44,740 bases of DNA from a virus (IMGVR_UViG_2617271072_000006:1-44740), one strand, 5' to 3'; positions 8,811 through 44,740 are shown, counted from the stretch's first letter. Program-made: numbers and translations. Notes: generated from the sequence alone by a model not told the origin.

Positions 8811-8816
8811 GTTTAT

Positions 8817-11223: not shown

Positions 11224-11235
11224 AAGTTTTAATTT

Positions 11236-11300
11236 ATACGCTTGCGTATTGATGGTCAAAACACGTTTTGCTATTGATTGGATTAATACGCATTGCTATT
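11236..11300. promoter_or_regulatory. Right operator/promoter region between repressor and cro-like gene
   Basis: Perfect palindrome ATACGCTTGCGTAT (11236-11249), imperfect copy (11285-11300) and TGCTATTG motifs; TATAAA -10-like element 8 nt upstream of the repressor ATG, consistent with a leaderless pRM-like transcript. Confidence 0.5.
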
Positions 11301-11333
11301 ATCCATTCATTGTAATACCAATAGGAATTGATA

Positions 11334-11561: not shown

Positions 11562-11585
11562 ACTGCGGCGTTAACTGATAAGGCA

Positions 11586-25421: not shown

Positions 25422-26050
25422 TGTACCGCTGAGTCTGAAATCTGTCAGTGACTCCGGTGAGTTTGAAGGGTATGGCTCCGTCTTTGGTGTAAAGGACAGC
25501 CACGATGATGTGGTGATGTCCGGGGCATTTGCTGCTTCCCTGCGGGCGTGGAGTGACAGAAAAGCGTTACCTGCGCTGCTCTGGCAGCACCGCATGGATG
25601 AACCCATCGGTGTTTACACCGAAATGAAGGAAGACGATGTCGGGCTTTACGTCAGGGGACGGTTGCTTATTGATGATGATCCCCTCGCAAAAACGCGCAC
25701 ATGCACACATGAAGGCCGGTTCGTTAACCGGCCTTTCTATTGGGTACGTCCTGAAAGACTGGGAATACGACCGGAGCAAAGAAGCCTTTCTGCTGAAAGA
25801 AATCGACCTCTGGGAAGTCAGCCTGGTGACGTTCCCGTCTAACGACGAGGCGCGGATCAGCGACGTCAAGAACGCACTGGCCCGCGGGGAAATCCCCGAA
25901 CAGAAAAAAATCGAAAGAGTCCTGCGTGATGTCGGACTCTCCCGTACCCAGGCCAAAGCATTCATGGCCGGGGGCTATGGCGCACTGTCCCTGCGCGACG
26001 CTGAGGATGTGGGCTCTGCACTGAATGCACTGAAAAATCTGAACTTCTAA
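25399..26050 (+). CDS. Prohead protease (HK97 family); frameshifted as assembled
   Basis: ORFs 25363-25842 and 25637-26050 are two frames of one protease; frames differ by one base around the C4/A5 runs at 25681-25693; start may be 25363 or ATG 25399. Confidence 0.75.
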
Positions 26051-26064
26051 TCAGGAGAAATACG

Positions 26065-27267: not shown

Positions 27268-27315
27268 TCACTCAGGGGCGCGGAACCGCGCCCCTGTTCT
27301 GACGGGTGAAGAATC

Positions 27316-27516
27316 ATGATCCTGAAACAAGATCTGAAATGGTCACCGGACGGTATGCGTGTTGAGGTCATTCGGGCCGGTGAGTATGACGACGGGGCGC
27401 TTCCTGCCCGGGTGCAGGAGATTGCACTTCAGGCCGGGTTAGCAGAGCGCGGAACCAGTGCAAAAAGCAATAAAGCGACAAAAGAGAAAAAAGCCACGAC
27501 CAGTAAAGAGGGCTGA
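27316..27516 (+). CDS. Hypothetical head-module protein
   Basis: 66-aa ORF between capsid and connector genes. Confidence 0.4.
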   Translation: MILKQDLKWSPDGMRVEVIRAGEYDDGALPARVQEIALQAGLAERGTSAKSNKATKEKKATTSKEG

Positions 27517-27518
27517 GT

Positions 27519-27842
27519 ATGCTTCTGACAATGGAAGAGATTAAAGCCCAACTCCGGCTGGATGAGGATTTCGATGCTGATGACCGCCATCTGCAACTGC
27601 TGGCCTGTGCGGCACAAAAGCGGACAGAAACGTATCTGAACCGGAAGCTCTATGCACCGGATGAAACCATTCCGGACAGCGATCCGGACGGGCTGCACCT
27701 GCCGGATGATATTCGTCTGGGGATGCTGATGCTTATCAGCCATTTTTACGAAAACCGCTCGTCGGTTACGGAAGTGGAGAAACTCGACATGCCGCAGAGT
27801 TTTGGCTGGCTTGTCGGCCCGTACAGGTACTTTCCGCAATGA
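27519..27842 (+). CDS. Head-tail connector (gp6-like)
   Basis: 107-aa ORF in the conserved position after the capsid gene. Confidence 0.65.
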   Translation: MLLTMEEIKAQLRLDEDFDADDRHLQLLACAAQKRTETYLNRKLYAPDETIPDSDPDGLHLPDDIRLGMLMLISHFYENRSSVTEVEKLDMPQSFGWLVGPYRYFPQ

Positions 27843-28249
27843 AAATTCGTCAGGCGCAGACCAGCGCAACCTACATTCTGCCGGACCCCGGTGAACTGAA
27901 TAAACGCGTCCTGATCCGCCAGCGGGTGGATATGCCCGCGGATAACTTTGGCGTGGAGCCTCAATACCCGGTTACGTTCCGGACATGGGCGAAGGTTATC
28001 CAGACCAGTGCCACCACCTGGCAGGAAACCGCGCAGACCGGGGACGCCATCACCCATTACATCACCATTCGCTACCGCCGGGGGATCACTGCTGATTATG
28101 AGGTGGTCTGTGATGACCGTGTGTACCGGGTGAAACGTCAGCGTGATCTGAACGGGGCGCGGCGCTTTCTGCTGCTGGAGTGTACGGAACTGGGTGCCGA
28201 AGAACAAATGGGAGGACGCAGTGGATCAGACAGCATTTTTACACGTTGA
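27839..28249 (+). CDS. Head closure / head-tail adaptor protein
   Basis: 136-aa ORF, overlapping neighbours, conserved order in HK97-type head modules. Confidence 0.6.
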   Translation: MKIRQAQTSATYILPDPGELNKRVLIRQRVDMPADNFGVEPQYPVTFRTWAKVIQTSATTWQETAQTGDAITHYITIRYRRGITADYEVVCDDRVYRVKRQRDLNGARRFLLLECTELGAEEQMGGRSGSDSIFTR

Positions 28250-28745
28250 TTTCAAACAACCGGAGGAGATGGAGTTTAACCGTGCCAGGCTCCGAAGGGC
28301 ATTTGTTCAAATCGGGCGTGTCTATATGCGTGATGCCCGGCGGCTGGTGATGCGACGTGGTCGGTCTGCTCCAGGTGAAAACCCCGGCTATCAGACCGGA
28401 CGACTTGCGCGTTCTATAGGTTATTACGTCCCCCGTAAAAGCTCCCGTCGTTCTGGCCTGATGGTCAGGATTTCCCCTAACCAGAAAAACGGGCAGGGTA
28501 ACCGGCGTTTTCCTGAAGGTTCTGCGTATTATCCGGCGTTTCTGTATTACGGTGTGCGTCATGCCGCATACGGGATGAGCAAAAAGGATAAGCGCCAGAA
28601 AAAGCAGCATTCATCCCGCTGGCGGCTGGCACCACGTAATAACTTTATGGCTGATGTCATCGACCAGCGTCGTTACTGGACACAAAAGTTACTGTCCCGT
28701 GAGTTACAGCGGTCATTACGTCCTGTAAGAAGGAAAAAAACATGA
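28194..28745 (+). CDS. HK97 gp10-like neck protein
   Basis: 183-aa Arg-rich ORF following the head closure gene. Confidence 0.55.
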   Translation: MPKNKWEDAVDQTAFLHVDFKQPEEMEFNRARLRRAFVQIGRVYMRDARRLVMRRGRSAPGENPGYQTGRLARSIGYYVPRKSSRRSGLMVRISPNQKNGQGNRRFPEGSAYYPAFLYYGVRHAAYGMSKKDKRQKKQHSSRWRLAPRNNFMADVIDQRRYWTQKLLSRELQRSLRPVRRKKT

Positions 28746-29302
28746 AACTGACTCCTGTTATTGCTGCGCTGCGTGCCCGCTGTCTGTATTTTGAAAACCG
28801 GGTGGCAGGCGCGGCACAGTTCAAAAATCTGCCGGAGGTCGGAAAGCTGAGACTCCCGGCGGCATATGTTGTACCGGGTGATGATTCTCCGGGAGAAAAC
28901 AAAAGCCAGACCGACTACTGGCAGGAGCTGAAAGAGGGCTTCTCCGTGGTTGTCATACTGAGTAACGGGCGTGATGAGCGCGGTCAGTTTGCCTCGTATG
29001 ATGTGGTGGACGATGTCCGGCAAATGCTCTTTAAGGCCCTGCTGGGCTGGAACCTGGAAGCGTGCGGTAATCCGATTACCTATGACGGTGGCACGCTGCT
29101 GGATCTGAATCGTCATGAGCTGATTTATCAGTTCGATTTTTCGGTCATCAGCGAGCTGACCGAAGACGATACCCGCCAGCAGGATGATCTGAACAGTCTG
29201 GATGAACTGCGAACGCTGGCGATTGATGTTGATTATCTCGATCCCGGTAACGGGCCTGACGGCGATATCGAACATCACACCGAAATAACCCTTCCTTCCT
29301 GA
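28742..29302 (+). CDS. Tail completion / terminator-like protein
   Basis: 186-aa ORF between neck genes and tail sheath. Confidence 0.5.
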   Translation: MKLTPVIAALRARCLYFENRVAGAAQFKNLPEVGKLRLPAAYVVPGDDSPGENKSQTDYWQELKEGFSVVVILSNGRDERGQFASYDVVDDVRQMLFKALLGWNLEACGNPITYDGGTLLDLNRHELIYQFDFSVISELTEDDTRQQDDLNSLDELRTLAIDVDYLDPGNGPDGDIEHHTEITLPS

Positions 29303-29464
29303 GAATCTTCATGTTTGTGAAACCTGTTAAAGGGCGGTCAGTTCCTGACCCTGCCCGCGGCGACCTTTTGCCCGCCGAGGGGCGAAATGTTGATGAGAAC
29401 AACTACTGGCTGCGCCGTGAAGCAGCGGGTGATATCCGGCGCGTGAATGAAAAGGTGAATACCG

Positions 29465-30960
29465 ATGACGATAAGCTTTAACTCCATTCCGTCGAATACG
29501 CTGGTTCCGATTTTTATGCGGAAATGGATAACTCGGCGGCGAATACTGCACAGGACAGCGGAGCATCGCTGCTGATTGGTCATGCCAATAACGGTGCAGA
29601 GATTGTTGCCAACAGTCTGGTGCTGATGCCATCGGCAGACTATGCACGCCAGATTTGTGGTGCGGGAAGTCAGTTGTCGCGTATGGTCGAGGCTTATCGC
29701 CAGACCGACCCGTTTGGTGAACTGTATGTGATTGCCGTTCCTGAATCCACGGGCGCGGCGGCAACAGTTACGCTGACGGTGACCGGAGCGGCAACCGAAA
29801 CCGGCACGGTGAATGTTTATGTGGGACGTACCCGCGTGCAGGCACCGGTGACCAACGGCGATAACGTCGCGACGATTGCCAGCAGTATCAAAGATGCCAT
29901 CAATGCCGTTCCGACCCTGCCGTTTACTGCCTCATCTTCGGCAGGCGTGATCACACTGACCGCGCGTCATAAGGGGCTTTGCGGGAATGAAATTCCTGTC
30001 AGCCTCAATTACTACGGCTTTGGTGGGGGCGAAGTGCTGCCAGCGGGCGTACAGATTGCCGTGGCGACGGGTACCGCTGGAACGGGCGCTCCTGTTCTCA
30101 CCGGCGCGGTGGCTGCAATGGCGGATGAGCCGTTTGATTATATCGGCCTGCCGTTCAACGACACGGCCTCCGTTAACACGCTGGTGACCGAGATGAACGA
30201 TACCAGCGGTCGCTGGAGCTATGCGCGTCAGCTGTATGGTCATGTGTATACGGCAAAGATCGGCACGCTGTCAGAACTGGTGACCGCAGGTGACCAGTTT
30301 AACCAGCAGCACATTACCCTGGAGGGATACGAAAAAGAGACCCCGACGCCTGCCGACGAGCTGGCGGCAAGCCGTACCGCCCGCGCAGCAGTGTTTATTC
30401 GCAACGATCCGGCACGTCCCACGCAGACCGGTGAGCTGGTGGGTATGCTGCCTGCGCCGAAGGGGAAACGGTTCACGATGACCGAACAACAGACCCTGCT
30501 GTCGCATGGCGTGGCAACGGCGTATGTCGAAAGCGGGGTGCTGCGCATTCAGCGTGATGTCACCACGTACAGGAAAAATGCTTACGGTGTTGCGGATAAC
30601 AGCTACCTCGACAGCGAGACGCTGCATACCAGCGCGTATGTGCTGCGCAAACTGAAATCCGTCATTACCAGTAAGTACGGGCGTCACAAGCTTGCCAGCG
30701 ACGGTACCCGCTTTGGTCCCGGTCAGGCGATTGTCACACCGGCGGTGATCAAAGGGGAACTGCTGACAACCTACCGTCAGCTTGAGCGTGCGGGGATCGT
30801 GGAAAACTACGAACTGTTTAAGCAGTACCTGGTTGTGGAGCGTGATGCCAGCGATCCGAACCGCCTGAACACGCTGTTCCCGCCTGACTATGTTAACCAG
30901 TTGCGTGTCTTTGCCGTGGTTAACCAGTTCCGTCTTCAGTATTCAGAGGAGTCTGCATAA
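29465..30960 (+). CDS. Contractile tail sheath protein (Mu gpL-like); N-terminus frameshifted as assembled
   Basis: ORF 29524-30960 (478 aa) extends to ATG 29465 (MTISFNSIPSNTLVPIFYAE-MDNSAAN) if the T5 run at 29511-29515 were T6; followed by a tube gene. Confidence 0.8.
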
Positions 30961-31316
30961 TGGCCCGTATCGGGGGAACCTGTTATTTCAAAATTGACGG
31001 TCAACAGCTATCGCTGACCGGCGGCATTGAGGTGCCCATGAACAGGACGGTCAATGATGACATCATCGGCCTGGACGGTTCAGTGGACCGCAAGGAAACT
31101 CACCGTGCGCCTTATGTCAAAGGGACTTTCAAGGTACCGAAGAATTTTCCGGTGAGCAAAATCACCTCGTCTGATGAGATGACCATCACTGCCGAGCTGG
31201 CGAACGGTCAGGTCTATGTATTGTCGTCTGCCTGGCTGCACGGTGAAGCGAACCATAATGCCGAAGAAGGCACGGTCGATATTGAATTTCACGGTGAAGA
31301 AGGGGATTACCAGTGA
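30960..31316 (+). CDS. Tail tube protein
   Basis: 118-aa ORF immediately after the sheath gene with ATGA overlap. Confidence 0.75.
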   Translation: MARIGGTCYFKIDGQQLSLTGGIEVPMNRTVNDDIIGLDGSVDRKETHRAPYVKGTFKVPKNFPVSKITSSDEMTITAELANGQVYVLSSAWLHGEANHNAEEGTVDIEFHGEEGDYQ

Positions 31317-31636
31317 TTGAGCTTGTACTTAAAAAACCGATCATCGCCCACAAAGAAACACTGCATGTGTTGGAAATACGTGAGCCTACGTATGACGAGA
31401 TTGAGGCGCTGGGGTTCCCTTTCTCTGTTTCGCCTGATGGTGGTATGAAAATGGACAGTCAGGTGGCGCTGAAATATATCCCGCTTCTGGCCGGGATCCC
31501 GCGCTCGTCTGCAGCGCAGATGACGAAGCTGGATATTTTCAAGGCAGGCATGATTGTAATGCGTTTTTTTACCGGCTTGGAGACGGAAGAGACCTCCGGA
31601 AGCGATTCTACAATGTCGCGTGGTTCTGGAAATTAA
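31313..31636 (+). CDS. Tail assembly chaperone
   Basis: 107-aa ORF between tube and tape-measure genes. Confidence 0.55.
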   Translation: MIELVLKKPIIAHKETLHVLEIREPTYDEIEALGFPFSVSPDGGMKMDSQVALKYIPLLAGIPRSSAAQMTKLDIFKAGMIVMRFFTGLETEETSGSDSTMSRGSGN

Positions 31637-31720
31637 ACCCCCTTGAACTTCGCCGGACGGCTATTTCTCACTTTGCTGATCTGGAGGCAGAGGCCGTCCG
31701 TATAAATGAGGAGATGAAGC

Positions 31721-33628
31721 ATGGCTGATAATTTTCAGCTGAAAGCCATCATCACCGCCGTTGACAGGCTATCCGGCCCGCTTAAAGGTATGCAGCGTCA
31801 GCTTAAGGGATTTCAGAAAGAAGTCTCCAGCCTTGCTCTGGGCGCTGCCGGGGCTGGTACTGCAATAATGGGGGCACTGGCACTCCCTGTAAAATCAGCC
31901 ATCACCCTTGAATCGAAGATGGCTGATGTCCGCAAAGTGGTGGACGGTCTGGATACGCCGGATGCATTTAAGGCCATGACGGAGCAGGTACGCGCTTTGT
32001 CTACAGAGCTTCCCATGTCTGCAGACGGGATCGCGGAAATTGTGGCGGCTGGCGGTCAGGCCGGGATTGCACGTGATGAACTGATGCAGTTTGCCACTGA
32101 TGCGGTGAAGATGGGCGTGGCCTTTGATACAACGGCTGAAGAGTCCGGGCAGATGATGGCCCAGTGGCGTACTGCGTTTAATATGACACAGGATGAAGTG
32201 GCTGGGCTGGCTGACAAAATCAACTACCTTGGTAATACCGGCCCGGCGAATGCGAAGAAAATCTCCGATATTGTTACGCGTATTGGTCCTTTAGGTGGTG
32301 TTGCTGGTGTGGCTTCCGGCGAAATCGCGGCGATGGGGGCAACCATTGCCGGGATGGGCGTGGAGTCAGAAATTGCCGCCACAGGGATCAAGAACTTCAT
32401 GCTTTCCCTGACCGCGGGAAATTCCGCGACAAAATCGCAGAAACAGGCATTGCGTTTTCTGCGGATCAATCCGAAGAAATTAGCTACTGATATGCAGAAA
32501 GATGCCCGGGGCACCATGCTGTCTGTACTGGATGCGATGGCTAAAGTGCCTAAAGAAAAACAGGCAGCTGTGCTGAATGCCCTGTTCGGGAAAGAGTCTC
32601 TGGGCGCGATAGCACCTCTGCTGACTAACCTTGATTTGTTGCGTACCAACTTCAGGCGGGTTGCGGATTCCCAGCAATATGGCAGTTCGATGCAGAAGGA
32701 ATATGCTTCGAGGGCAGCGACGACGGAAAACCAGCTTTTACTTCTGCAAAATCAACTTGATGCCATTTCTTCCACGCTGGGGGAAACGTTTCTTCCTGAG
32801 GTTAATGATGGTCTTGAAGCGGTAAAACCGCTCCTTGAGGAAGTGAGAACGTTTTGTCCGTGAAAACCCGGAGCTCGTTAAGACCATTGCTAAAATCGGT
32901 CTGGCCTTACTGACGGTGGGAGCCGCTGCAGGCTCTTTGTCCAGAATTATGAAAGTTCTCGGCGGTGTGATGAATATGACGCCTGCTAAGGGGCTGATTG
33001 CTCTTCTGGTTGGTGGCGCTTACCTCATTATTGATAACTGGGAAACCGTAGGTCCTGTCATAAAAAGTCTGGCACGTGGTGGATGAAACGGCGCAGGCGA
33101 TGGGGGGGATGGGAAACTGTTCTGAAAGCGATTGCCCTGTTTATGGCAACCAAATGGGTTGCTGACGTTACCAAATCCATTACCGCAGTGACCAGAGAGA
33201 TGCGTACGCTGGGGAAGGTATCGGCAGAAACGGGATTGATGGGGAAAGGCCGCGGCTTTATCGGGAAGGCCGGGGTATATGGTTTTCTGGGAACCCTGAT
33301 ATATGAGCCGGTTAAAGATACTCTGGAAAGTGTTGTTCCTGAAGATACGGTTAACTGGCTGGATAATAAAGGGCTGTTTCTGGCTTCAGACTGGACGCCT
33401 TTTTTTGATCGTAAAGAGTACGAGCAGTATCAGGCCAGCCTGAGTCAGTACAAACCCAATGTTCCGCTGTTGAATCCATCTTCTTCCATGACACAGCACA
33501 GCGAGCTGAAAGTCACGTTCGAGAATGCTCCGCCAGGTATGAAGATAATTGATGTACCGGGAAAAGCCGATCCCCTGATGAAAATCACGCACGATGTGGG
33601 GTATTCCCCTTTTCGTTTTCCACGATAA
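31721..33628 (+). CDS. Tail tape measure protein; two frameshifts as assembled
   Basis: ORF 31721-32863 and 33083-33628 are linked by an open frame 32856-33086 (VRENPELVKTIAKIGLALLTVGAAAG...); frame changes at the T4 run 32852-32855 and near 33071-33083. Confidence 0.8.
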
Positions 33629-33652
33629 CGCAGTCCTTTTTGAGGTCAGTCT

Positions 33653-35029
33653 ATGGATTTATCCTCATTTCCCACCCGACCTTCATTACTTTCGTCGTCT
33701 TCAGGCTGGCGTGACAGGCTTCAGGACGCGTCATTTCGCGGCGTGCCGTTTAAGGTTGAAGAAGAAAGTGCGGGAACCGGTCGCCGTGTGGAAACACATG
33801 AATACCCGAACCGCGACAAGCCCTATACCGAAGATCTGGGAAAAGTCACTTTCCGCCCGTCCATCACAGCTTATGTGGTGGGAGATGACTGCTTTGACCA
33901 GCGCGATCGCCTGATTGAAGCGCTGAATAAACCCGGTCCCGGCACGCTTGTCCACCCGACATATGGTGAGCTGAAAGTCTGTGTTGACGGGGAAGTTCGG
34001 GTCAGCACATCGAAAAGTGAAGGGCGTATTGTCCGCTTTGACCTGAAGTTTGTCGAAGCAGGAGAACTCTCTTACCCCACATCAGGTGCGGCGACGGCGC
34101 AGACGCTGATGTCATCCTGTTCTGCACTGGATGACTGCATTAGTGACAGCTTCAGCGGTTTCAGTATCGATGGTGTGGCGGATTTCGTGCAGAACGACGT
34201 TATCGGTAATGCCAGCATAATGCTGGGGTATGTTTCTGATGCGATGAAAGTGGTGGATTCTGCCGTATCGGATGCCGCCAGGCTGTTGCAGGGGGATATC
34301 TCGGTACTTCTGCCGCCGCCATCGTCAGGCAAAAATTTCGTTGAGCAGGTGCAGAAAATGTGGCGTACCGGGAAACGCCTTTATGGTAACGCCAGCGACC
34401 TGGTTACCATGATCAAAACGCTTTCCGGTGTCAGCCTCGGCAGCGATCTGCAACCGCGCGGCGTCTGGAAAACGGACAGTAAAACCACCGCCACGGCGAC
34501 GCAGCAGCGTAACGTGGTTGCCAGCACCCTTCGTACGACCGCAATCAGCGAAGTGGCGTATGCCGTCACCCGATTGCCTGCGCCAACAACTTCCGCGGTG
34601 ATGCAGAATTCCGCAGTGGGGCAGGCAACAACACCCGCGCAGAGCACTGGCTGGCCTTCCGTCACGCATCCGGCACTGAACAATGCACCGGCGGTGAAAA
34701 ACACGGTTGACCTGCCGACGTGGGAAGAACTGACTGACATTCGCGACACACTGAATACGGCAATTGATAAGGAGTTGTCCCGTACAACCAGTGATGCGCT
34801 GTTTCTGGCGCTGCGCCGGGTGAAAGCAGATCTGAATGCGGATATCAACACGCGCCTTGAACAGTCTGCACGGATCATTCAGCGCACACCGGATGAGGTT
34901 TTACCCGCGCTGGTGCTGGCGGCGACCTGGTTTGATAACGCGGCGCGTGACGCGGACATTATCCGGCGTAATGCCATTACGCATCCCGGCTTTGTGCCGG
35001 TGATCCCTCTGAAGGTGCCAGTGCAATGA
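33653..35029 (+). CDS. Mu gpN-like DNA circularisation / tail protein
   Basis: 458-aa ORF with DRLQDASFRGVPFKVEEE N-terminal motif; position between tape measure and baseplate hub. Confidence 0.7.
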   Translation: MDLSSFPTRPSLLSSSSGWRDRLQDASFRGVPFKVEEESAGTGRRVETHEYPNRDKPYTEDLGKVTFRPSITAYVVGDDCFDQRDRLIEALNKPGPGTLVHPTYGELKVCVDGEVRVSTSKSEGRIVRFDLKFVEAGELSYPTSGAATAQTLMSSCSALDDCISDSFSGFSIDGVADFVQNDVIGNASIMLGYVSDAMKVVDSAVSDAARLLQGDISVLLPPPSSGKNFVEQVQKMWRTGKRLYGNASDLVTMIKTLSGVSLGSDLQPRGVWKTDSKTTATATQQRNVVASTLRTTAISEVAYAVTRLPAPTTSAVMQNSAVGQATTPAQSTGWPSVTHPALNNAPAVKNTVDLPTWEELTDIRDTLNTAIDKELSRTTSDALFLALRRVKADLNADINTRLEQSARIIQRTPDEVLPALVLAATWFDNAARDADIIRRNAITHPGFVPVIPLKVPVQ

Positions 35030-36105
35030 ACGACAATGTCACGCTACGGGTAAATGGCCGGGAGTGGAATGGCTGGACATCGGTGCGCATCGGTGCCGGT
35101 ATTGAACGGCTGGCGCGGGATTTCAGTGTGGAGATCACCCGCCAGTGGCCGGGAGATGAGGGTATCACCACGCTTCAGCCGCGCATTAAAAACGGTTCAA
35201 AAGTGGAAGTGCTGATTGGTGATGAGCTGGTGATCACCGGCTGGGTGGAGGCGACGCCCGTTCGTTACGATGCCCGTTCGGTCAGCACCGGTATTGCCGG
35301 ACGTAGTCTGACGGCTGACCTGATTGACTGTGCAGCCGAACCGACACAGTTTAACGGACGCTCGCTGGTGCAGATTGCGCAGGCGCTTGCTGCGCCTTTC
35401 GGCATTGAGGTGGTGAACAGCGGTGCGCCGTCGGGTGTTATTCCTGATGTTCAGCCTGATCACGGTGAAACGGTGATTGAGGTAATCAACAAAATACTCG
35501 GTCAGCAGCAGGCACTGGCTTACGACGACCCGCACGGCAGGCTGGTGATTGGCGGTATTGGCTCAACGCGGGCACATACTGCGCTGGTACTCGGGGAAAA
35601 CATCCTTTCCTGTGATACGGAGAAGAGTATCCGGGAGCGGTTTTCTGTTTACCAGGTGGCGGGGCAGCGTGCCGGAAACGACGATGATTTCGGTGAGGCC
35701 ACCACCACCGCGCTGCGGGCCCGCACAGAGGACGCATTTATTGCCCGTTACCGTCCGATGTATATCAGGCAGACAGGGCAGGCTACGGGGGCAGGCTGTA
35801 TTGCCCGTGCGGACTTTGAAGCCAGACAACGGGCGGCGCGGACGGATGAAACCACCTATGTGGTGCAGGGCTGGCGACAGGGTAACGGTACGCTGTGGCA
35901 GCCCAACCAGCGGGTGATTGTCTTTGATCCGGTCTGTGGTTTCGACAATACCGAACTGCTTGTTTCGGAAGTCACGTTTACTCAGGACCAGAACGGCACC
36001 CTGACGGAAATCCGTGTCGGCCCACCTGATGCTTATCTGCCTGAACCCGAAGCCCCCGGCGCGCGAAAAAAGAAAAAAGCCAGAGTACAGGAGGACCCGT
36101 TCTGA
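35026..36105 (+). CDS. Mu gpP-like baseplate hub protein
   Basis: 359-aa ORF; conserved order N-P-gp45-gp46-gp47-gp48 of Mu-type tails. Confidence 0.7.
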   Translation: MNDNVTLRVNGREWNGWTSVRIGAGIERLARDFSVEITRQWPGDEGITTLQPRIKNGSKVEVLIGDELVITGWVEATPVRYDARSVSTGIAGRSLTADLIDCAAEPTQFNGRSLVQIAQALAAPFGIEVVNSGAPSGVIPDVQPDHGETVIEVINKILGQQQALAYDDPHGRLVIGGIGSTRAHTALVLGENILSCDTEKSIRERFSVYQVAGQRAGNDDDFGEATTTALRARTEDAFIARYRPMYIRQTGQATGAGCIARADFEARQRAARTDETTYVVQGWRQGNGTLWQPNQRVIVFDPVCGFDNTELLVSEVTFTQDQNGTLTEIRVGPPDAYLPEPEAPGARKKKKARVQEDPF

Positions 36106-36653
36106 TGAGGACGATTGAAGCCATGCAGCGACAACTCCTCGGCCTGATTGGGCGGGCCGTGGTGAAAAGCATCAGTGCCGCCACGAAATGTCAGACCGTG
36201 GATGTGTCTCTGATTGCCGGTGAACCCAAAGCCGGGGTTGAACATCTTGAACCCTACGGTTTTACCGCAAGGGCAAACAGCGGTGCGGAAGCGGTGGTGT
36301 TGTTTCCGGATGGCGACCGTTCTCATGCGGTGGTTGTTACGGTGTCGGACCGGCGCTACCGCCTGAAAGGGCTGCAGACGGGTGAGGTGGCTGTCTATGA
36401 CGATCAGGGGCAGTCCGTGACGCTGACCCGGGAGGGGATCGTGGTGGACGGTGCAGGTAAAACGATCACGTTTCGCAATGCGCCTAAGGCTCGTTTTGAA
36501 ATGGACCTGGAAGTGACCGGACAGGTGAAAGACCTGTGCGACTCCAGCGGCACCACCATGTCAGCGATGCGGCTTGCCTATAACGGGCATCGTCACAGAG
36601 AGAACGGTCAGGGCAGTAACACCGACAAACCTGATAAAGCGATGGAGGCATGA
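36105..36653 (+). CDS. Baseplate assembly/spike protein (Mu gp45 / gpV-like)
   Basis: 182-aa ORF following the hub gene. Confidence 0.7.
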   Translation: MRTIEAMQRQLLGLIGRAVVKSISAATKCQTVDVSLIAGEPKAGVEHLEPYGFTARANSGAEAVVLFPDGDRSHAVVVTVSDRRYRLKGLQTGEVAVYDDQGQSVTLTREGIVVDGAGKTITFRNAPKARFEMDLEVTGQVKDLCDSSGTTMSAMRLAYNGHRHRENGQGSNTDKPDKAMEA

Positions 36654-37078
36654 TGGAACTGTGGCTGACGGTGAACGGTAAACGCACCTGCGCTAGCGCA
36701 CCGCTGGATCCGCTGACCCGTGCCGTGGTGATTTCCCTGTTCACCTGGCGGCGGGCTGAACCTGATGACAATGCCGACGTCCCGATGGGATGGTGGGGGG
36801 ATACCTGGCCTGCGGTACAGAATGACCGTTACGGCTCCCGACTGTGGCTGCTTCAGCGCAGCAAACTGACCAATCAGCTGGTGCAGACGGTAAGGGGGTA
36901 TATCCGCGAATGCCTGCAATGGATGATTGATGACGGCGTGGTGTCCCGTATTGATCTGGATATCCGCCGCACCGGGATTAATGAACTGGGTAACAGTATC
37001 ACTCTCTGGCGTCGTGACGGACCGGTAATGATTTCTTTTGATGATCTGTGGAGTGCGATAACGCATGGCGGACAGTGA
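36650..37078 (+). CDS. Mu gp46-like baseplate protein
   Basis: 142-aa ORF in conserved position. Confidence 0.7.
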   Translation: MMELWLTVNGKRTCASAPLDPLTRAVVISLFTWRRAEPDDNADVPMGWWGDTWPAVQNDRYGSRLWLLQRSKLTNQLVQTVRGYIRECLQWMIDDGVVSRIDLDIRRTGINELGNSITLWRRDGPVMISFDDLWSAITHGGQ

Positions 37079-38123
37079 ATTTCAGCGCCCGACGCTGGCA
37101 GAAAATATCAGTATGCTCCGTAACGATTTATTCGCCAGGCTGGACGTCAGCGACACGCTCCGGCGCATGGATGAAGACGTGCGGGCAAAGGTGTATGCGG
37201 CGGCGCTGCATACGGTTTACGGTTACATCGATTATCTGGCAATGAACATGCTGCCTGACCTGTGCGATGAGTCCTGGCTGGCGCGACATGCTGCGATGAA
37301 ACGGTGTCCGCGCAAGGGGGCCACGGCTGCCAGCGGGTATATGCGCTGGGAAGGTGTCAGCGATGGCCTGAAAGTGACCGCCGGGAGCGTGATTCAGCGC
37401 GATGACCTGGTTCAGTACACGGCAACTGCCGATGCAACCAGCTCCGGTGGTGTCCTGCGCGTGCCGATCGCCTGCTCAAGTGCAGGCGCGGTCGGTAACG
37501 CTGACGACGGTACGGCATTAATCCTGGTCACGCCGGTGAATGGTCTGCCGTCTTCCGGTGTGGCTGACACCCTGACAGGCGGATTTGATACTGAAGAGCT
37601 GGAAACGTGGCGCGCCCGCGTCATTGAGCGGTATTACTGGACGCCTCAGGGCGGGGCTGACGGGGACTATGTCGTCTGGGCTAAAGAAGTGCCCGGCATT
37701 ACCCGCGCATGGACATACCGACACTGGATGGGAACGGGGACTGTCGGTGTGATGATTGCCAGCAGTGACCTGATTAATCCCATTCCGGAAGAGTCAACGG
37801 AAACGGCGGCAAGACAACATATCGGGCCATTGGCCCCGGTGGCAGGCTCTGATTTGTATGTATTCAGGCCGGTGGCGCATAAAGTGGATTTTCATATCCG
37901 CGTGACGCCGGACACACCGGAAATACGGGCTGCCATCACCGCCGAGTTGCGTTCGTTCCTGCTGCGTGATGGTTATCCGCAGGGAGAACTGAAGGTGTCA
38001 CGTATCAGTGAAGCGATTTCCGGTGCGAACGGGGAATACAGCCATCAGTTGCTTGCACCGGCAGACAATATCTCCATTGCAAAAAATGAGCTGGCAGTTC
38101 TGGGGACGATTTCATGGACGTGA
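37065..38123 (+). CDS. Baseplate J-like protein (Mu gp47-like)
   Basis: 352-aa ORF in conserved position. Confidence 0.75.
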
Positions 38124-38698
38124 CAAACGATGATTATATCCGTCTGTTGTCGGCACTGTTGCCGCCCGGTCCGGCGTGGTCAGTCAGCGATCCGGCGATT
38201 GCCGGTGCGGCACCGTCATTAACCCGCGTTCATCAGCGTGCGGATGCCCTGATGCGGGAGCTGGATCCGCGCACCACCACTGAACTGATAAACCGCTGGG
38301 AGCGTCTGTGCGGTCTGCCGGATGAATGTATTCCCGCAGGGACACAGACCCTTCGCCAGCGTCAGCAACGGCTGGATGCGAAGGTTAATCTGGCGGGCGG
38401 CATCAATGAGGATTTTTACCTTGCACAGCTTGCTGCCCTGGGCAGACCAGACGCCACTATCACGCGATACGATAAAAGCACGTTCACCTGCTCATCGGCC
38501 TGTACTGACGCAGTGAATGCGCTGGAATGGCGGTATTACTGGCAGGTCAACATGCCAGCTGCCACCAACACCACCTGGATGACATGTGGCGATCCCTGTG
38601 ATTCCGCACTGCGTATCTGGGGCGACACCGTTGTCGAGTGTGTGCTTAACAAACTCTGCCCGTCGCATACCTACGTAATTTTTAAATATCCGGAGTAA
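38114..38698 (+). CDS. Mu gp48-like tail protein
   Basis: 194-aa ORF between baseplate J and tail fibre genes. Confidence 0.7.
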
Positions 38699-38701
38699 TC
38701 C

Positions 38702-39457
38702 ATGCATCGTATAGACACGAAAACCGCGCAGAAGGATAAGTTCGGCGCGGGTAAGAACGGTTTTACCCGTGGTAACCCCCAGACCGGCACACCTGCCACC
38801 GATCTGGATGATGACTACTTTGACATGTTGCAGGAGGAGCTTTGCGGCGTGGTGGAGGCATCCGGTGCCAGCCTGGAGAAGGGGCGGCACGACCAGCTGC
38901 TTACCGCGCTTAGTGCGCTACTGTTAAGCCGCAAAAATCCGTTTGGCGATATCAAATCGGACGGCACGGTGAAAACGGCTCTCGAAAACCTTGGTTTGGG
39001 AGAAGGCTCTGCATTACCTGTTGGTGTGCCTGTTCCGTGGCCCTCAGCCACTCCGCCAACAGGCTGGCTAAAATGCAACGGAGCAGCTTTTTCTGCTGAA
39101 GAATACCCGGAACTGGCAAAGGCTTACCCGACAAATAAATTGCCTGATTTACGCGGTGAATTTATTCGTGGCTGGGATGACGGACGTGGAGTGGATGCCG
39201 GGCGACAATTATTATCTTCACAGGGGGATGCAATAAGAAATATTGAGGGATTCGCAGATGGCGGGATCGGCATGTCTTTTGATGCAATCAGAGGGGCTTT
39301 TTACGATGCAGGAACACGATCAGCGAGAATGCCGAATAACACAACTGATATAGGCAAAACCGATGACCTTGGATTCGACGCCTCTCGTGTCGTGCCAACA
39401 GCTAATGAAAACCGTCCACGTAACATCGCCTTTAATTATATTGTGAGGGCTGCATAA
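38702..39457 (+). CDS. Tail fibre protein, constant N-terminal part plus variable C-terminal tip 1 (Mu S / P2 H-type)
   Basis: 251-aa ORF; first 102 aa identical to the inverted copy at 40452-41036; tip contains PWP...[23 protein letters not shown]...[17 protein letters not shown]. Confidence 0.85.
38981..39004 (+). other. Din-invertase-type crossover site (gix/hix/cix-like) at the constant/variable junction of tail fibre gene 1
   Basis: CTCGAAAACC-TT-GGTTTGGGAGAA: dyad AAAACC..GGTTT with TTCTC-type outer half-sites, resembling hix/gix consensus as recalled. Confidence 0.6.
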
Positions 39458-40050
39458 TGAAACCTGTTTTTGATGAAAATGGGCTGGCTACAGTGCCGGG
39501 TGATATGCGTTGTTATTATTATGATGCAGTAACGTCTGAATATACGGGCTGGTCTGATGAATATATTAATACTGGCGTAAGTATGCCCGCCTGTTCCACT
39601 GGTATTGACCCGGGCGAATACATTCCGGGGCAAGTGGCAGTATTCACGGGTAAGGGATGGAGCCATGAAGAAGACCATCGCAATGAGACTGTTTACTCAA
39701 CAGAAAATGGCGCAGCTGTTACAGTGGATTATATCGGTGCCATCAAAGACGGTTATGTCACGCTTTCACCGTTAACGCCATATGATAAATGGGATGGTGA
39801 GAAATGGGTGACAGATACTGAGGCACAACACGATGCCGCAGTAGAAGCGGCAGAAGCACAGCGCCAGTCACTGATTGATGCAGCAATGGCTTCCATTAGT
39901 CTGATTCAGCTGAAATTACAGGCCGGGCGGAAACTGACGCAGGCAGAAACAACCCGGCTTAACGCTGTGCTGGATTACATTGACGCGGTGACGGCAACAG
40001 ATACCAGCACCGCGCCGGATGTCATCTGGCCTGAACTGCCGGAGGCGTAG
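39457..40050 (+). CDS. Tail fibre assembly chaperone (Tfa) for tip 1
   Basis: 197-aa ORF directly after fibre tip 1; C-terminal [11 protein letters not shown] motif shared with the convergent tfa. Confidence 0.8.
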
Positions 40051-40450
40051 GCCATTCAATATCGGGTGCTGTTGAAGTATCAACACGCATCAGCAGCACA
40101 CGGTATTTCTTCCATTCGGTGAGAGTTGAAGTTTCTTCATCAGTTGCGATATCAGCATCAACAGCATCCTGACGCCAGGATATTTCACTGTCAGCTTTTT
40201 CCCGTAATTGGGATTTTTTAACTTCAGCAATAGCTATTAATTCCTTTTTGGTCGGCTGAGGAATATCTATCAGTGCTGGTTTTCCATTCAGTGTTCCAAT
40301 CTGTTTTCCTGGTGGAATATCCATAAATAACTTTTTATGTTCTTCCTCACTGACTATTACACCATCATCAGGCCACAGACCTGATGCCTCAAATTTTTCT
40401 TTCTCCGATATGGGGAAAAAGCCATTTGCTTTAGCGCTCCATACGTACAT
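40022..40450 (-). CDS. Tail fibre assembly chaperone (Tfa) for tip 2
   Basis: 142-aa ORF convergent with and overlapping the other tfa by 29 bp; C-terminal [11 protein letters not shown] motif. Confidence 0.8.
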
Positions 40451-40451
40451 A

Positions 40452-41036
40452 TCAATACCCCACCGCTATAATGTCCACATTAAATCCTCCGGGACCTGCC
40501 TGCCAGATGCTGGCCCCTGTTAATGATTTTGTTTGATGAACAACCGCCACATTTGCTGGCGATTGTGTTTCAGTTGTTACAGTACCGATATCATTCCAGT
40601 TAATTGAGATGGAATAGTTCGTTGTTGTAAACGACCGGGGGAAAGTTATGTGTCTTACATTGGTGCCAATAGGAAATCCAAGATAAACACGCTGAATTAT
40701 CATTCCTCCAGGTAACATAACCCAGTTAGCACCTTCTCCCAAACCAAGGTTTTCGAGAGCCGTTTTCACCGTGCCGTCCGATTTGATATCGCCAAACGGA
40801 TTTTTGCGGCTTAACAGTAGCGCACTAAGCGCGGTAAGCAGCTGGTCGTGCCGCCCCTTCTCCAGGCTGGCACCGGATGCCTCCACCACGCCACAAAGCT
40901 CTTCCTGCAACATGTCAAAGTAGTCATCATCCAGATCGGTGGCAGGTGTGCCGGTCTGGGGGTTACCACGGGTAAAACCGTTCTTACCCGCGCCGAACTT
41001 ATCCTTCTGCGCGGTTTTCGTGTCTATACGATGCAT
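40452..41036 (-). CDS. Tail fibre protein of the inverted module, same constant N-terminus with different C-terminal tip 2
   Basis: 194-aa ORF; residues 1-102 identical to fibre 1, then unrelated C-terminus. Confidence 0.85.
40734..40759 (-). other. Second Din-type crossover site, inverted relative to site 1
   Basis: TTCTCCCAAACC-AA-GGTTTTCGAGAG, exact reverse complement of the site at 38981-39004, at the constant/variable junction of fibre gene 2. Confidence 0.6.
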
Positions 41037-41039
41037 GGA

Positions 41040-41624
41040 TTACTCCGGATATTTAAAAATTACGTAGGTATGCGACGGGCAGAGTTTGTTAAGCACACAT
41101 TCGACAACGGTGTCGCCCCAGATACGCAGCGCGGAATCACAGGGATCGCCACATGTCATCCAGGTGGTGTTTGTGGCGGCTGGCATGTTGACCTGCCAGT
41201 AATACCGCCATTCCGGCGCATTCACCGCGTCAGTACAGACCGATGAGCAGGTGAACGTGCTTTTGTCGTATCGCGTGATGTTGGCATCTGGTCTGCCCAG
41301 GGCAGCAAGCTGTGCAAGATAAAAATTCTCGTTGATGCTGCCCGCCAGGTTAACCTTCGCATCCAGCCGTTGCTGACGCTGACGAAGGGTCTGTGTCCCT
41401 GCGGGAATACATTCATCCGGCAGACCGCACAGACGCTCCCAGCGGTTTATCAGTTCAGTGGTGGTGCGCGGATCCAGCTCCCGCATCAGGGCATCCGCAC
41501 GCTGATGAACACGGGTTAATGACGGTGCCGCACCGGCAATCGCCGGATCGCTGGCTGACCACGCCGGACCGGGCGGCAACAGTGCCGATAACAGGCGGAT
41601 GTAATCATCGTTTGTCACGTCCAT
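41040..41624 (-). CDS. Mu gp48-like tail protein, second (inverted) copy
   Basis: 194 aa, 6 substitutions relative to 38114-38698 (~97% identity). Confidence 0.7.
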
Positions 41625-42673
41625 GAAATCGTCCCCAGTACCGCCAGTTCGTTTTTCGCAATGGAGATATTGTCCACCGGTGCAAGCAACTGATGGCTGT
41701 ATTCCCCGTTCGCACCGGAAATCGCCTCACTGATACGCGATACCTTCAGTTCTCCCTGCGGATAACCATCACGCAGCAGGAACGAACGCAACTCCGCGGT
41801 AATGGCAGCCCGTATTTCTGGTGTGTCCGGCGTCACGCGGATATGAAAATCCACCGTATGTGCCACCGGCCTGAATACATACAAATCAGAGCCTGCCACC
41901 GGGGCCAGTGGCCCGATATGTTGTCTTGCTGCCGTTTCCGTTGATTCTTCCGGAATGGGGTTAATCAGGTCACTGCTGGCAATCATCACACCGACAGTCC
42001 CCGTTCCCATCCAGTGTCGGTATGTCCATGCGCGGGTAATGCCGGGCACTTCTTTAGCCCAGACGACATAGTCCCCGTCAGCCCCGCCCTGAGGCGTCCA
42101 GTAATACCGCTCAATGACGCGGGCGCGCCACGTTTCCAGCTCTTCAGTATCAAATCCGCCTGTAAGGGTGTCAGCCACACCGGAAGACGGCAGACCATTC
42201 ACCGGCGTGACCAGGATTAATGCCGTACCGTCGTCAGCGTTACCGACCGCGCCTGTAGTTGAGCAAGTGATCGGCACACGCAGGACACCACCGGAGCTGG
42301 TTGCATCGGCAGTTGCCGTGTACTGAACCAGGTCATCGCGCTGAATCACGCTCCCGGCAGTCACCTTCAGGCCATCGCTGACACCTTCCCAGCGCATATA
42401 CCCGCTGGCAGCCGTGGCCCCCTTGCGCGGACACCGTTTCATCGCAGCATGTCGCGCCAGCCAGGACTCATCGCACAGGTCAGGCAGCATGTTCATTGCC
42501 AGATAATCGATGTACCCGTAAACCGTATGCAGCGCCGCCGCATACACCTTTGCCCGCACGTCTTCATCCATGCGCCGGAGCGTGTCGCTGACGTCCAGCC
42601 TGGCGAATAAATCGTTACGGAGCATACTGATATTTTCTGCCAGCGTCGGGCGCTGAAATTCACTGTCCGCCAT
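41615..42673 (-). CDS. Baseplate J-like protein, second (inverted) copy
   Basis: 352 aa, a few substitutions relative to 37065-38123. Confidence 0.75.
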
Positions 42674-43087
42674 GCGTTATCGCACTCCACAGATCATCAA
42701 AAGAAATCATTACCGGTCCGTCACGACGCCAGAGAGTGATACTGTTACCCAGTTCATTAATCCCGGTGCGGCGAATATCCAGATCAATACGGGACACCAC
42801 GCCGTCATCAATCATCCATTGCAGGCATTCGCGGATATACCCCCTTACCGTCTGCACCAGCTGATTGGTCAGTTTGCTGCGCTGAAGCAGCCACAGTCGG
42901 GAGCCGTAACGGTCATTCTGTACCGCAGGCAGGTATCCCCCCACCATCCCATCGGGACGTCGGCGTTGTCATCAGGCTCCGCCCGCCGCCAGGTAAACAG
43001 GGAAATCACCACGGCGCGGGTCAGCGGATCCAGCGGTGCGCTGGCGCAGGTGCGTTTACCGTTCACCGTCAGCCACAGTTCCATCAT
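42660..43087 (-). CDS. Mu gp46-like protein, second copy; frameshifted as assembled
   Basis: ORFs 42869-43087 and 42660-42947 correspond to the two halves of gp46; one G missing relative to copy 1 near 42925-42935. Confidence 0.65.
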
Positions 43088-43722
43088 GCCTCCATCGCTT
43101 TATCAGGTTTGTCGGTGTTACTGCCCTGACCGTTCTCTCTGTGACGATGCCCGTTATAGGCAAGCCGCATCGCTGACATGGTGGTGCCGCCGGAGTCGCA
43201 CAGGTCTTTCACCTGTCCTGTCACTTCCAGGTCCATTTCAAAACGTGCCTTAGGCGCATTGCGAAACGTGATCGTTTTACCTGCACCGTCCACCACGATC
43301 CCCTCCCGGGTCAGCGTCACGGACTGCCCCTGATCGTCATAGACAGCCACCTCACCCGTCTGCAGCCCTTTCAGGCGGTAGCGCCGGTCCGACACCGTAA
43401 CAACCACCGCATGAGAACGGTCGCCATCCGGAAACAACACCACCGCTTCCGCACCGCTGTTTGCCCTTGAGGTAAAACCGTAGGGTTCAAGATGTTCAAC
43501 CCCTGCTTTGGGTTCACCGGCAATCAGGGACACATCCACGGTCTGACATTTCGTGGCGGCACTGATGCTTTTCACCACGGCCCGCCCAATCAGGCCGAGG
43601 AGTTGTCGCTGCATGGCTTCAATCGTCCTCATCAGAACGGGTCCTCCTGTACTCTGGCTTTTTTCTTTTTCCGCGCGCGGAGGCTTCGGGTTCAGGCAGA
43701 TAAGCATCAGGCGGACCGACAC
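43084..43722 (-). CDS. Baseplate gp45-like protein, second copy (apparent N-terminal extension)
   Basis: 212-aa ORF; last 182 aa match 36105-36653; extension arises from an indel difference in the gpP/gp45 junction. Confidence 0.65.
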   Translation of the reverse strand: MSVRLMLICLNPKPPRAEKEKSQSTGGPVLMRTIEAMQRQLLGLIGRAVVKSISAATKCQTVDVSLIAGEPKAGVEHLEPYGFTSRANSGAEAVVLFPDGDRSHAVVVTVSDRRYRLKGLQTGEVAVYDDQGQSVTLTREGIVVDGAGKTITFRNAPKARFEMDLEVTGQVKDLCDSGGTTMSAMRLAYNGHRHRENGQGSNTDKPDKAMEA

Positions 43723-44710
43723 GGATTTCCGTCAGGGTGCCGTTCTGGTCCTGAGTAAACGTGACTTCCGAAACAAGCAGTTCGGTATTGTCGAAACCAC
43801 AGACCGGATCGAAGACAATCACCCGCTGGTTGGGCTGCCACAGCGTACCGTTACCCTGTCGCCAGCCCTGCACCACATAGGTGGTTTCATCCGTCCGCGC
43901 CGCCCGTTGTCGGGCTTCAAAGTCAGCACGCGCAATACAGCCTGCCCCCGTGGCCTGCCCTGTCTGCCTGATATACATCGGACGGTAACGGGAAATAAAT
44001 GCGTCCTCTGTGCGGGCCCGCAGCGCGGTGGTGGTGGCCTCACCGAAATCATCGTCGTTTCCGGCACGCTGCCCCGCCACCTGGTAAACAGAAAACCGCT
44101 CCCGGATACTCTTCTCCGTATCACAGGAAAGGATGTTTTCCCCGAGTACAAGCGTGGTATGTGCCCGCGTTGAGCCAATACCGCCAATCACCAGCCTGCC
44201 GTGCGGGTCGTCGTAAGCCAGTGCCTGCTGCTGACCGAGTATTTTGTTGATCACCTCAATCACCGTTTCGCCGTGATCAGGCTGGACATCAGGAATAACG
44301 CCCGACGGCGCACCGTTGTTCACCACCTCAATGCCGAAAGGCGCAGCAAGCGCCTGCGCAATCTGTACCAGCGATCGTCCGTTAAACTGTGTCGGTTCGG
44401 CTGCACAGTCAATCAGGTCAGCGGTCAGACTACGTCCGGCAATACCGGTGCTGACCGAACGGGCATCGTAACGAACGGGAGTCGCCTCCACCCAGCCGGT
44501 GATCACCAGCTCATCACCAATCAGCACTTCCACTTTTGAACCGTTTTTAATGCGCGGCTGAAGCGTGGTGATACCCTCATCTCCCGGCCACTGGCGGGTG
44601 ATCTCCACACTGAAATCCCGCGCCAGCCGTTCAATACCGGCACCGATGCGCACCGATGTCCAGCCATTCCACTCCCGGCCATTTACCCGTAGCGTGACAT
44701 TGTCGTTCAT
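43619..44710 (-). CDS. Mu gpP-like baseplate hub, second copy
   Basis: 363-aa ORF near-identical to 35026-36105 except for a frame difference in the last ~20 codons. Confidence 0.7.
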   Translation of the reverse strand: MNDNVTLRVNGREWNGWTSVRIGAGIERLARDFSVEITRQWPGDEGITTLQPRIKNGSKVEVLIGDELVITGWVEATPVRYDARSVSTGIAGRSLTADLIDCAAEPTQFNGRSLVQIAQALAAPFGIEVVNNGAPSGVIPDVQPDHGETVIEVINKILGQQQALAYDDPHGRLVIGGIGSTRAHTTLVLGENILSCDTEKSIRERFSVYQVAGQRAGNDDDFGEATTTALRARTEDAFISRYRPMYIRQTGQATGAGCIARADFEARQRAARTDETTYVVQGWRQGNGTLWQPNQRVIVFDPVCGFDNTELLVSEVTFTQDQNGTLTEIRVGPPDAYLPEPEASARGKRKKPEYRRTRSDEDD

Positions 44711-44740
44711 TGCACTGGCACCTTCAGAGGGATCACCGGC
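44707..44740 (-). CDS. 3' end of gpN-like gene of the second module (partial, runs off window)
   Basis: Minus-strand sequence mirrors the gpN/gpP overlap of copy 1 (..VIPLKVPVQ stop overlapping ATG). Confidence 0.5.
   Translation of the reverse strand, partial: PVIPLKVPVQ

Follow-up and report, generated by a model that had tools for sequence, protein, structure and literature searches.

Among the described systems that come nearest to the locus analysed here is the P segment of the cryptic prophage e14 with its invertase PinE, a member of the Din family to which Gin of Mu, Cin of P1 and Hin of Salmonella also belong. This prophage has 96-97% nucleotide identity to our sequence over jayE-ymfQ and the fibre constant part, and the order of YmfQ, the constant part of the tail fibre and the mirror-image fibre ends is the same in both. 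After the segment, e14 and all canonical relatives carry an outer half-site of another type and then pinE; our sequence has a second tail module there. Clonal E. coli cultures hold both orientations of such segments together (PMC4272514). The second related group consists of the serotype-converting phages SfV, SfII, SfIV and SfI of Shigella and E. coli, which combine lambdoid early genes with a Mu-like contractile tail. Their tail module, including the whole fibre constant part, has 97.6-98.1% nucleotide identity to our sequence; the homology stops at position 39006, where they continue into other fibre ends. Each of these phages has one tail module, while our sequence has two, and their integrases are of the thrW type, in contrast to the lambda-type integrase at ybhC found here.

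The window, which is the whole stretch of 44,740 nucleotides that was analysed, comprises the last 44.7 kb of the draft contig CBWN010000010.1 (GCA_000529855.1), which ends at position 44740. Positions 1-2489 are the left end of a prophage (prophage A below) at the lambda attachment site. Its late part is a tail module of the SfV/e14-like kind with the Mu-type baseplate set N, P/gp44, gp45, gp46, gp47 and gp48 (Pfam families DNA_circ_N, GpP-like, Phage_Mu_Gp45, GP46, Baseplate_J and Phage_Mu_Gp48). The features of prophage A are as follows:

1-1284, minus strand: 5' part of the host gene ybhC, from the annotated features (K-12 gene order ybhC-ybhB-bioA)
1419-2489, minus strand: lambda-type integrase (Pfam Phage_integrase and lambda Arm-DNA-bind_1)
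34996-39006, plus strand: left arm, from the end of the DNA-circularisation gene N through the fibre constant part
35026-36105, plus strand: gpP/gp44, left arm
36105-36653, plus strand: gp45, left arm
36650-37078, plus strand: gp46, left arm
37065-38123, plus strand: gp47/J, left arm
38114-38698, plus strand: gp48/YmfQ, left arm
38702-39006, plus strand: constant N-terminal part of the tail fibre, left arm

The original prediction for this DNA described 4-kb near-identical tail modules in inverted orientation, and both a repeat finder and our own alignment of the arms confirm it: the window sequence 34996-39006 recurs as a reverse-complement copy at 40732-44740, the predicted inner boundaries 39004 and 40734 being off by 2 bp. 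The repeat finder reports three contiguous inverted-repeat pairs with 97-98% complementarity (36808-39006/40732-42930, 36054-36807/42930-43683 and 34996-36077/43659-44740). In our alignment the arms differ by 88 substitutions, and the right copy lacks one base at each of two places, 36058 and 36807 in the numbering of the left copy; the arms show no differences across 34996-35255 and 38846-39006. The nucleotide differences are synonymous in 67 cases and non-synonymous in 21, and this synonymous majority implies that the arms are two truly diverged copies. The expectation of few amino-acid substitutions per protein also held, with counts of 0 to 6 (gpP 4, gp45 2, gp46 0, gp47 5, gp48 6, fibre constant part 0). 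The right arm contains the following features:

40732-40851, minus strand: A-type start of the right arm, 120 bp, with ten SNPs relative to the B1S11-type sequence
40852-40892: switch zone, 41 bp common to prophages A and B, the only new adjacency in the region
40893-44740, minus strand: B-type tail module, from the rest of the fibre constant part through the end of N'
41040-41624, minus strand: gp48', right module
41615-42673, minus strand: gp47', right module
42660-43087, minus strand: gp46', split, right module
42930-42931: private 1-bp deletion, GG to G, which splits gp46'
43084-43632, minus strand: gp45', right module
43619-44710, minus strand: gpP' with altered C-terminus, right module
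43678-43679: private 1-bp deletion which alters the end of gpP'
44481-44740: final 260 bp, the same in both copies, ending at the contig end

The two 1-bp deletions of the right copy, which alter the C-terminus of gpP and split gp46, had been overlooked in the earlier reading of the sequence.

The 1,725 bp between the arms (39007-40731) are an e14/Mu-type invertible tail-fibre segment of the P/G type, with Pfam matches to Collar, Caudo_TAP (twice) and Gp53-like_C. The constant N-terminus of the fibre lies outside the segment, and two alternative C-termini in mirror image, each with an assembly gene of its own, lie inside it, as seen in the fibre ORFs at 38702-39457 (plus strand) and 40452-41036 (minus strand). 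The segment and its borders are composed of these elements:

up to 39457, plus strand: variable fibre end Sv, ORF
39457-40050, plus strand: tfa, ORF
40022-40450, minus strand: tfa', ORF
40452-40731, minus strand: alternative fibre end S'v, ORF
38979-39004, plus strand: left 26-bp crossover site, CTCTCGAAAACC-TT-GGTTTGGGAGAA, core at 38991-38992
40734-40759, minus strand: right 26-bp crossover site, outer half of the fibre-constant type

Thus the segment is bounded by two inverted 26-bp crossover sites, both with the sequence that e14 of K-12 has to the left of its P segment. In the canonical prophages (e14 and the relatives L001 and L013) the right site has a different, pin-proximal outer half, TTTTCATAAACG, and their pin-side half-site, TTTTCATAAACGTTGG, precedes pinE. 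The presence of the same left, constant-part type of site on both flanks is therefore a non-canonical pairing. A tblastn search with PinE detected no invertase gene in the window; in relatives of the A type and the e14 type the segment is succeeded by a full-length Pin, in those of the B type by a remnant of 42 aa. The segment itself is 100% identical to that of NZ_OW968111.1, which has the layout of the canonical relatives and then pinE. Related genomes occur in either orientation of the segment, and the homology to flipped-state relatives starts at 38991.

Comparison with individual relatives revealed where each part of the window belongs. Against the canonical prophage of NZ_OW968111.1, window 26004-40747 shows 2 substitutions and 9 indel bases at 8 sites, which are mostly homopolymers and all private to this contig. 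The same interval matches the unflipped state (L001), and window 38991-40892 matches at 100% the A-type prophage L010, in which the segment is flipped. Therefore, the contig holds both mutually exclusive flip junctions around a single segment. The canonical relative of the left module runs on into pinE. No finished genome was found to have this prophage A at ybhC: the best relatives at ybhC (L026) have lambda-type tails, and the best relatives of the late region are located at thrW or icd.

The right arm changes its allegiance shortly after it begins. All 11 of the 11 B-type loci carry B alleles at the positions where window 40732-40851 has A alleles; judged by its sequence, this stretch is prophage A's own flipped-state junction, in which the fibre constant part is joined to S'v. 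From 40852 to 44740 the window has zero substitutions relative to the prophage of B1S11 at proL. This agrees with the original view that we are dealing with two diverged tail modules and not with an exact duplicate, as the right arm from 40852 onwards belongs to an independent prophage lineage of the B1S11 type. The switch from A to B lies 105-146 bp outward of the crossover core. With k up to 42, all k-mers of 34000-44740 are found in three canonical references, except at the two deletion sites; with k of 43 or more, novelty in the same test is confined to 40851-40893, the deletion sites aside.

The usual home of the B-type prophage is known from its relatives. All ten of the B-allele contexts shown end in the pin-remnant/GmrSD cargo and eight of them pass directly into yejM; in B1S11, proL is annotated between this cargo and yejM. 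By the K-12 gene order, B-type prophages at proL are convergent with att-lambda, and the intervening stretch of about 1.48 Mb contains the terminus. The place and orientation of B in the strain studied here would be the same if it follows its relatives, and in that case the chromosome would have lost about 1.48 Mb if the join were real.

The survey of other genomes offers no second example of this arrangement. Both arms on one strand, that is the layout of the window, were present in 0 of 5,426 complete E. coli genomes, and the same junction was not found in independent finished genomes among them. The best coverage reached in this set was 62% of window 36000-43700 and 74% of 38000-41700. All other contigs that we read with the same fibre proteins are canonical. 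In the 24 contigs read with the 251-aa fibre, a full-length invertase comes next; the same is true for the nine other places shown with the 194-aa fibre, except for one proL-type relative and three contigs that end first.

The quality of the source contig and its end also have to be considered. The earlier observation that the fibre genes are not followed by attR is borne out, and host DNA and an invertase gene are likewise missing there. The absence of attR and host DNA arises because position 44740 is the physical end of the contig, so that the repeat was cut by the data and not by biology. Prophage A and the B1S11 sequence are identical over 34889-35255, hence the contig stops inside a shared repeat. 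Both 1-bp deletions of the right arm are absent from 12 of 12 related loci that cover these sites. Indels that are private to the contig occur in both copies and substitutions against NZ_OW968111.1 are few, which points to error-prone reads. One might argue that the right module is undergoing true pseudogenisation, but this is unlikely, as the deletions are private and the left module, set against a near-identical relative, has private indels similar in kind and rate.

Taken together, the inverted repeat is truly present in the sequence, and most likely it originates from a draft-assembly mis-join of two ordinary E. coli prophages. We assign a probability of about 0.8 to the reading that the assembler of a low-quality draft created the tail-to-tail junction as a chimera and that the chromosome has no such structure. 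A mis-join across repeats had been among the candidates put forward at the outset, and it is favoured by the draft contig that ends in a repeat, by the join within 41 bp of shared sequence, by local sequence that canonical elements account for and by the coexistence of both flip junctions. Most likely, then, no new genome structure is present here.

What we observed directly is how the locus is built, where the SNPs switch, which k-mers it contains and that the source is a draft; the path of the assembler and the location of B in the strain are our interpretation, as follows. At least two SfV/e14-like prophages, whose Mu-like tails have about 98% identity, are probably present in the strain: prophage A, read from ybhC, and prophage B, of the type normally at proL. 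Such a prophage normally closes with the fibre constant part, the invertible segment of 1.7 kb and an invertase gene, in this order (intact pinE in relatives of the A-type, a 42-aa remnant in those of the B-type). Both orientations in the culture would provide reads for two junctions, the constant part with Sv and the constant part with S'v. Coming from the tail of A, the assembler may have crossed the segment and taken the flipped-state junction as its exit, which leads back into A's own constant part in reverse complement. The 41 bp, the first sequence common with B, would then have let it pass into the unused paralogue B, until the next repeat common to both stopped it at the contig end. 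In a variant of this artefact, B in the strain might have an identical segment, and the assembler could have threaded a collapsed two-copy repeat wrongly.

The main alternative is a real junction, in which related prophages of one chromosome recombined within or beside their invertible segments, by homologous recombination or by an invertase that acted on sites of different prophages. The outcome would be an inversion if the prophages are direct, or a deletion if they are convergent and close, and it would leave one segment, two tail modules and no invertase in cis. Reasoned from the anatomy, an inversion between direct prophages with opposite flip states would give this layout, and so would an exchange of the right site of one prophage with the left site of the other. 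The arms are truly different sequences, and large prophage-driven rearrangements are known in E. coli (PMC8743559). Additionally, the natural recombinant L004, an A/B mosaic, has its crossover in the fibre constant region, within the same gene and switching between 38638 and 38836. Since such natural mosaics exist, the odd switch point alone is no proof of an artefact. Nevertheless, we consider a real junction improbable. The distance of the switch from the crossover core rules out a single invertase exchange with a B1S11-type partner and, with no invertase gene in the window, speaks against the Din-family exchange at the crossover sites that had been proposed; a single homologous exchange is not able to place A's constant part on both sides of the segment. 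The simple deletion between two prophages, another of the proposed routes, fares no better, as the B relatives adjoin proL, convergent with att-lambda, and the join would mean the loss of the 1.48 Mb including the terminus. The layout is also missing from the complete genomes surveyed, and the source contig is an error-rich draft terminating in a repeat. The version that would suit the data, two SfV-like prophages fused around one segment via inter-prophage recombination followed by a short conversion tract in the fibre constant region, is quite improbable. There is a small residual chance that the right arm derives from a natural mosaic in circulation: no complete genome matches the 401-bp switch haplotype 40735-41135 at 100%, the best value being 99.0%, though the mosaic L004 exists.

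A fold-back (hairpin) artefact or an inverted duplication of one prophage, where the right arm would be the left arm reversed, agrees with the first 120-160 bp of the right arm, which are the left arm's own sequence reversed. Beyond 40893, however, the arms show the 88 differences with their 67:21 ratio of synonymous to non-synonymous changes, and an independent prophage lineage present in many genomes has the very sequence of the right arm. Therefore, a second, real copy supplied the sequence of the right arm, and the fold-back is very unlikely. As a complete explanation the hairpin duplication is refuted; it survives only as the first step of the chimera path. If the true genome had two complete prophages as tail-to-tail neighbours, two diverged tail modules would likewise converge as they do in the contig, but this earlier suggestion is highly improbable, as two segments, pin genes, cargoes and att sites would be expected, whereas between the modules there is one segment, no pin gene and no att site, and the B relatives use proL and not the ybhC-ybhB site.

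If the junction were true, it would be an unusual prophage-driven rearrangement: an E. coli quasi-palindrome of at least 9.7 kb with 4-kb arms, in which the tail-fibre switch is severed from its invertase. As an artefact, the window illustrates that invertible fibre segments together with paralogous prophages can lead draft contigs from one prophage into another. Genome scans over such chimeras report prophage boundaries ("no attR"), pseudogenes and inverted repeats that are not real, and contigs terminating in repeats of this kind should be filtered or flagged ahead of interpretation.

Two described cases stand for the two sides of this question. In the rearrangements of E. coli O157:H7 (PMC8743559), long near-identical prophage segments serve as recombination substrates, and this is the real-biology alternative for our locus. 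However, those rearrangements are documented by long reads and the prophage ends stay on a viable chromosome, whereas, with B at proL, the product suggested by the window would have about 1.48 Mb missing. The other case is EC958, where about 50% of reads were flipped and spurious contigs arose, and where the authors cautioned that duplications seen in phage regions may be artefacts (Forde et al. 2014, PMC4134206). As proposed for the window, mixed flip states there produced assembled sequence absent from any single molecule; both cases have 26-bp crossover sites, and they would also have in common truncated invertases supplied in trans and homopolymer errors of the 454 type. The difference is that in EC958 the alternative state formed separate small contigs, while in the window it was apparently built into the main contig, which then runs on into a paralogous prophage.

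The inverted repeat described in the original prediction is indeed present where it was placed: a repeat search of the window recovered two arms built from three contiguous pairs that are 97-98% complementary. The alignment of the arms showed 88 substitutions, and relative to the left copy the right one lacks a single base at each of two sites; no differences fall within 34996-35255 or 38846-39006. The differences comprise 67 synonymous and 21 non-synonymous nucleotides and lead to 17 amino-acid changes (gpP 4, gp45 2, gp46 0, gp47 5, gp48 6, fibre constant part 0). Therefore, the window holds two truly diverged copies of the tail module and not an exact duplicate, as had been proposed. It had been overlooked that the two 1-bp deletions change how gpP ends in the right copy and split gp46 there. 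The elements of the repeat are:

34996-39006: left arm
38979-39004: 26-bp crossover site in the end region of the left arm, identical to the e14 P-segment left site
between the arms, 1,725 bp: segment with a fibre end with Collar domain, two tail-fibre assembly genes face to face and, on the opposite strand, an alternative fibre end
40734-40759: 26-bp crossover site in the end region of the right arm, identical to the e14 P-segment left site
40732-44740: right arm, inverted

The left module together with the entire segment (38000-40750) is 100% identical to NZ_OW968111.1, the canonical relative of prophage A, which is read from ybhC; in NZ_OW968111.1 the invertase gene pinE comes next. Most of the right arm (40852-44740) has zero substitutions compared to the prophage of strain B1S11, the type of the second prophage, B. 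The stretch 40732-40851 departs from B1S11 at 10 positions and matches the left arm exactly, and the B alleles are found at the equivalent positions in all 11 of 11 B-type loci. Region 38991-40892 is 100% identical to a flipped-state A-type prophage (L010). Judging by these identities, the contig order is the tail of A, its constant part, the segment, A's own flipped-state junction (120-160 bp) and then B. The switch from A to B falls within a 41-bp stretch common to both copies (40852-40892), 105-146 bp outside the crossover core. When 34000-44740 was compared with three canonical references (A unflipped, A flipped and B), every k-mer with k <= 42 was found in them, the two deletions excepted, and with k >= 43 novelty was confined to 40851-40893.

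The most likely explanation of the junction is an assembly chimera, to which we assign a probability of about 0.8; the assembly mis-join across repeats, one of the candidates proposed originally, is favored by the shared 41-bp switch, the draft contig end and the absence of the layout from complete genomes. Among 5,426 complete E. coli genomes, not one had at least 80% of 38000-41700 or 36000-43700 in one place, and the highest single-place coverage (74% and 62%, respectively) is that expected from one arm plus the segment. The 401-bp switch haplotype was absent at 100% identity from the complete genomes, the closest match being 99.0%. A full-length invertase follows the 251-aa fibre in 24 of 24 contigs examined, and among the matches listed it also follows the 194-aa fibre in the other contigs, except for one proL-type relative (GmrSD instead) and three contigs ending earlier; PinE had no tblastn match anywhere in the window. 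Both orientations of such segments coexist within clonal cultures (PMC4272514), thus reads would support an exit from the segment either to pinE or back to the constant part. For EC958, flipped reads made up about half of the total and led to spurious contigs, and the study cautions against artefactual duplications within phage regions (PMC4134206). An assembler taking the constant-part edge would re-enter sequence already used, at the first node common to A and its paralogue the only continuation would be B, and the assembly would then halt in the following repeat that the two share. A and B1S11 do not differ across 34889-35255, and the last 260 bp of the contig lie in that repeat. Position 44740 is the end of draft contig CBWN010000010.1 (GCA_000529855.1, 109,154 bp; sequence identity verified as exact). 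The attR is indeed absent after the fibre genes; however, both this and the stop of the repeat are explained by the end of the data and not by biology.

A variant of this explanation is that B in this strain could itself carry an A-like fibre end, as in L004 (GCA_029523195.1), a natural mosaic in which the alleles are B-type as far as the position matching 38638 and A-type from 38836 onward, the alternative fibre end is identical to the window and the tfa region is B-type. L004 indicates that recombination within the fibre constant region occurs naturally. The error would then be a two-copy repeat threaded wrongly, and the junction an artefact either way.

A real rearrangement between prophages is improbable. 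On paper, inversion between two directly oriented prophages would yield the tail-to-tail layout; however, a single homologous exchange cannot leave one segment flanked on either side by the constant part of A. Contexts of the B allele of gp47 end in a 42-aa pin remnant and a GmrSD gene (10 of 10 among the matches listed), with yejM directly next in 8 of these 10, and B1S11 has proL annotated between. The K-12 positions are 0.807 Mb for ybhC/ybhB and 2.286 Mb for yejM-proL. Prophage A, at att-lambda, and prophage B, if it lies at proL like its relatives, would therefore converge, and their join would delete about 1.48 Mb including the terminus. Such a deletion would presumably be lethal in E. 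coli. One invertase-mediated exchange with a B1S11-type partner could not have placed the switch so far from the crossover core. The rearrangements put forward originally are unsupported. The B-type loci at proL (L014-L023), with the invertase reduced to a 42-aa remnant adjoining the GmrSD gene, differ in segment orientation (194-aa or 248-aa fibre first), a pattern suggesting that the invertase of another prophage flips the segment in trans, which has been reported for Phi4 of EC958 (PMC4134206).

The draft quality of the contig also bears on its genes. Compared with the NZ_OW968111.1 prophage (99.9% identical), 26004-40747 has 2 substitutions and 9 indel bases at 8 sites, mostly homopolymers, within 26409-33102. 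Owing to three indels (32852, 33061 and 33102), the tape-measure gene (31721-33628) is split into three ORFs; another three cluster within about 100 bp (26409-26515). Related loci that span these positions show neither these indels nor the right-arm deletions. Such a private pattern is typical of homopolymer read errors and is comparable to the 454 errors listed for EC958 assemblies (PMC4134206). Therefore, read errors probably account for the apparent pseudogenes of both modules, and pseudogenes of this window should not be trusted.

The window opens in the host gene ybhC, and a lambda-type integrase comes next; the best relatives of this end have lambda-type tails. A SIR2-like defence gene (8817-10418, minus strand; 533 aa in relatives) lies in a 30% GC island adjoining the S24-peptidase repressor (10532-11059), and an extra private T in a T run at 10405 shortens it at the 5' end. 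The early region also encodes a 339-aa protein with a PRTase-CE domain (14050-15069, plus strand; PF24390), labelled 'phosphoribosyltransferase-like protein' in related prophages. The late region (26000-40747) is 99.8-99.9% identical to the thrW prophage of NZ_OW968111.1, and other carriers of the same fibre are located at thrW/pao or icd. Single-place coverage by complete genomes does not exceed 83% for 1-12000 or 81% for 9000-30000. The combination of 1-26000 with 26000-40747 would reflect either natural lambdoid mosaicism or a second mis-join in the same contig.

The order in canonical relatives (NZ_OW968111.1, e14 in K-12 and others) is gp47, YmfQ, fibre, tfa, tfa', alternative fibre end, pinE, cargo and host. 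Their pin side carries a different outer half-site, TTTTCATAAACG, whereas the window has the left-type site on both sides. The late region is a module of the same type as in SfV, SfII, SfIV and e14, with a Mu-like tail, matching Pfam families and 97.6-98.1% identity up to 39006. The underlying biology, SfV/e14-like prophages with a Pin-type fibre switch, is already known.
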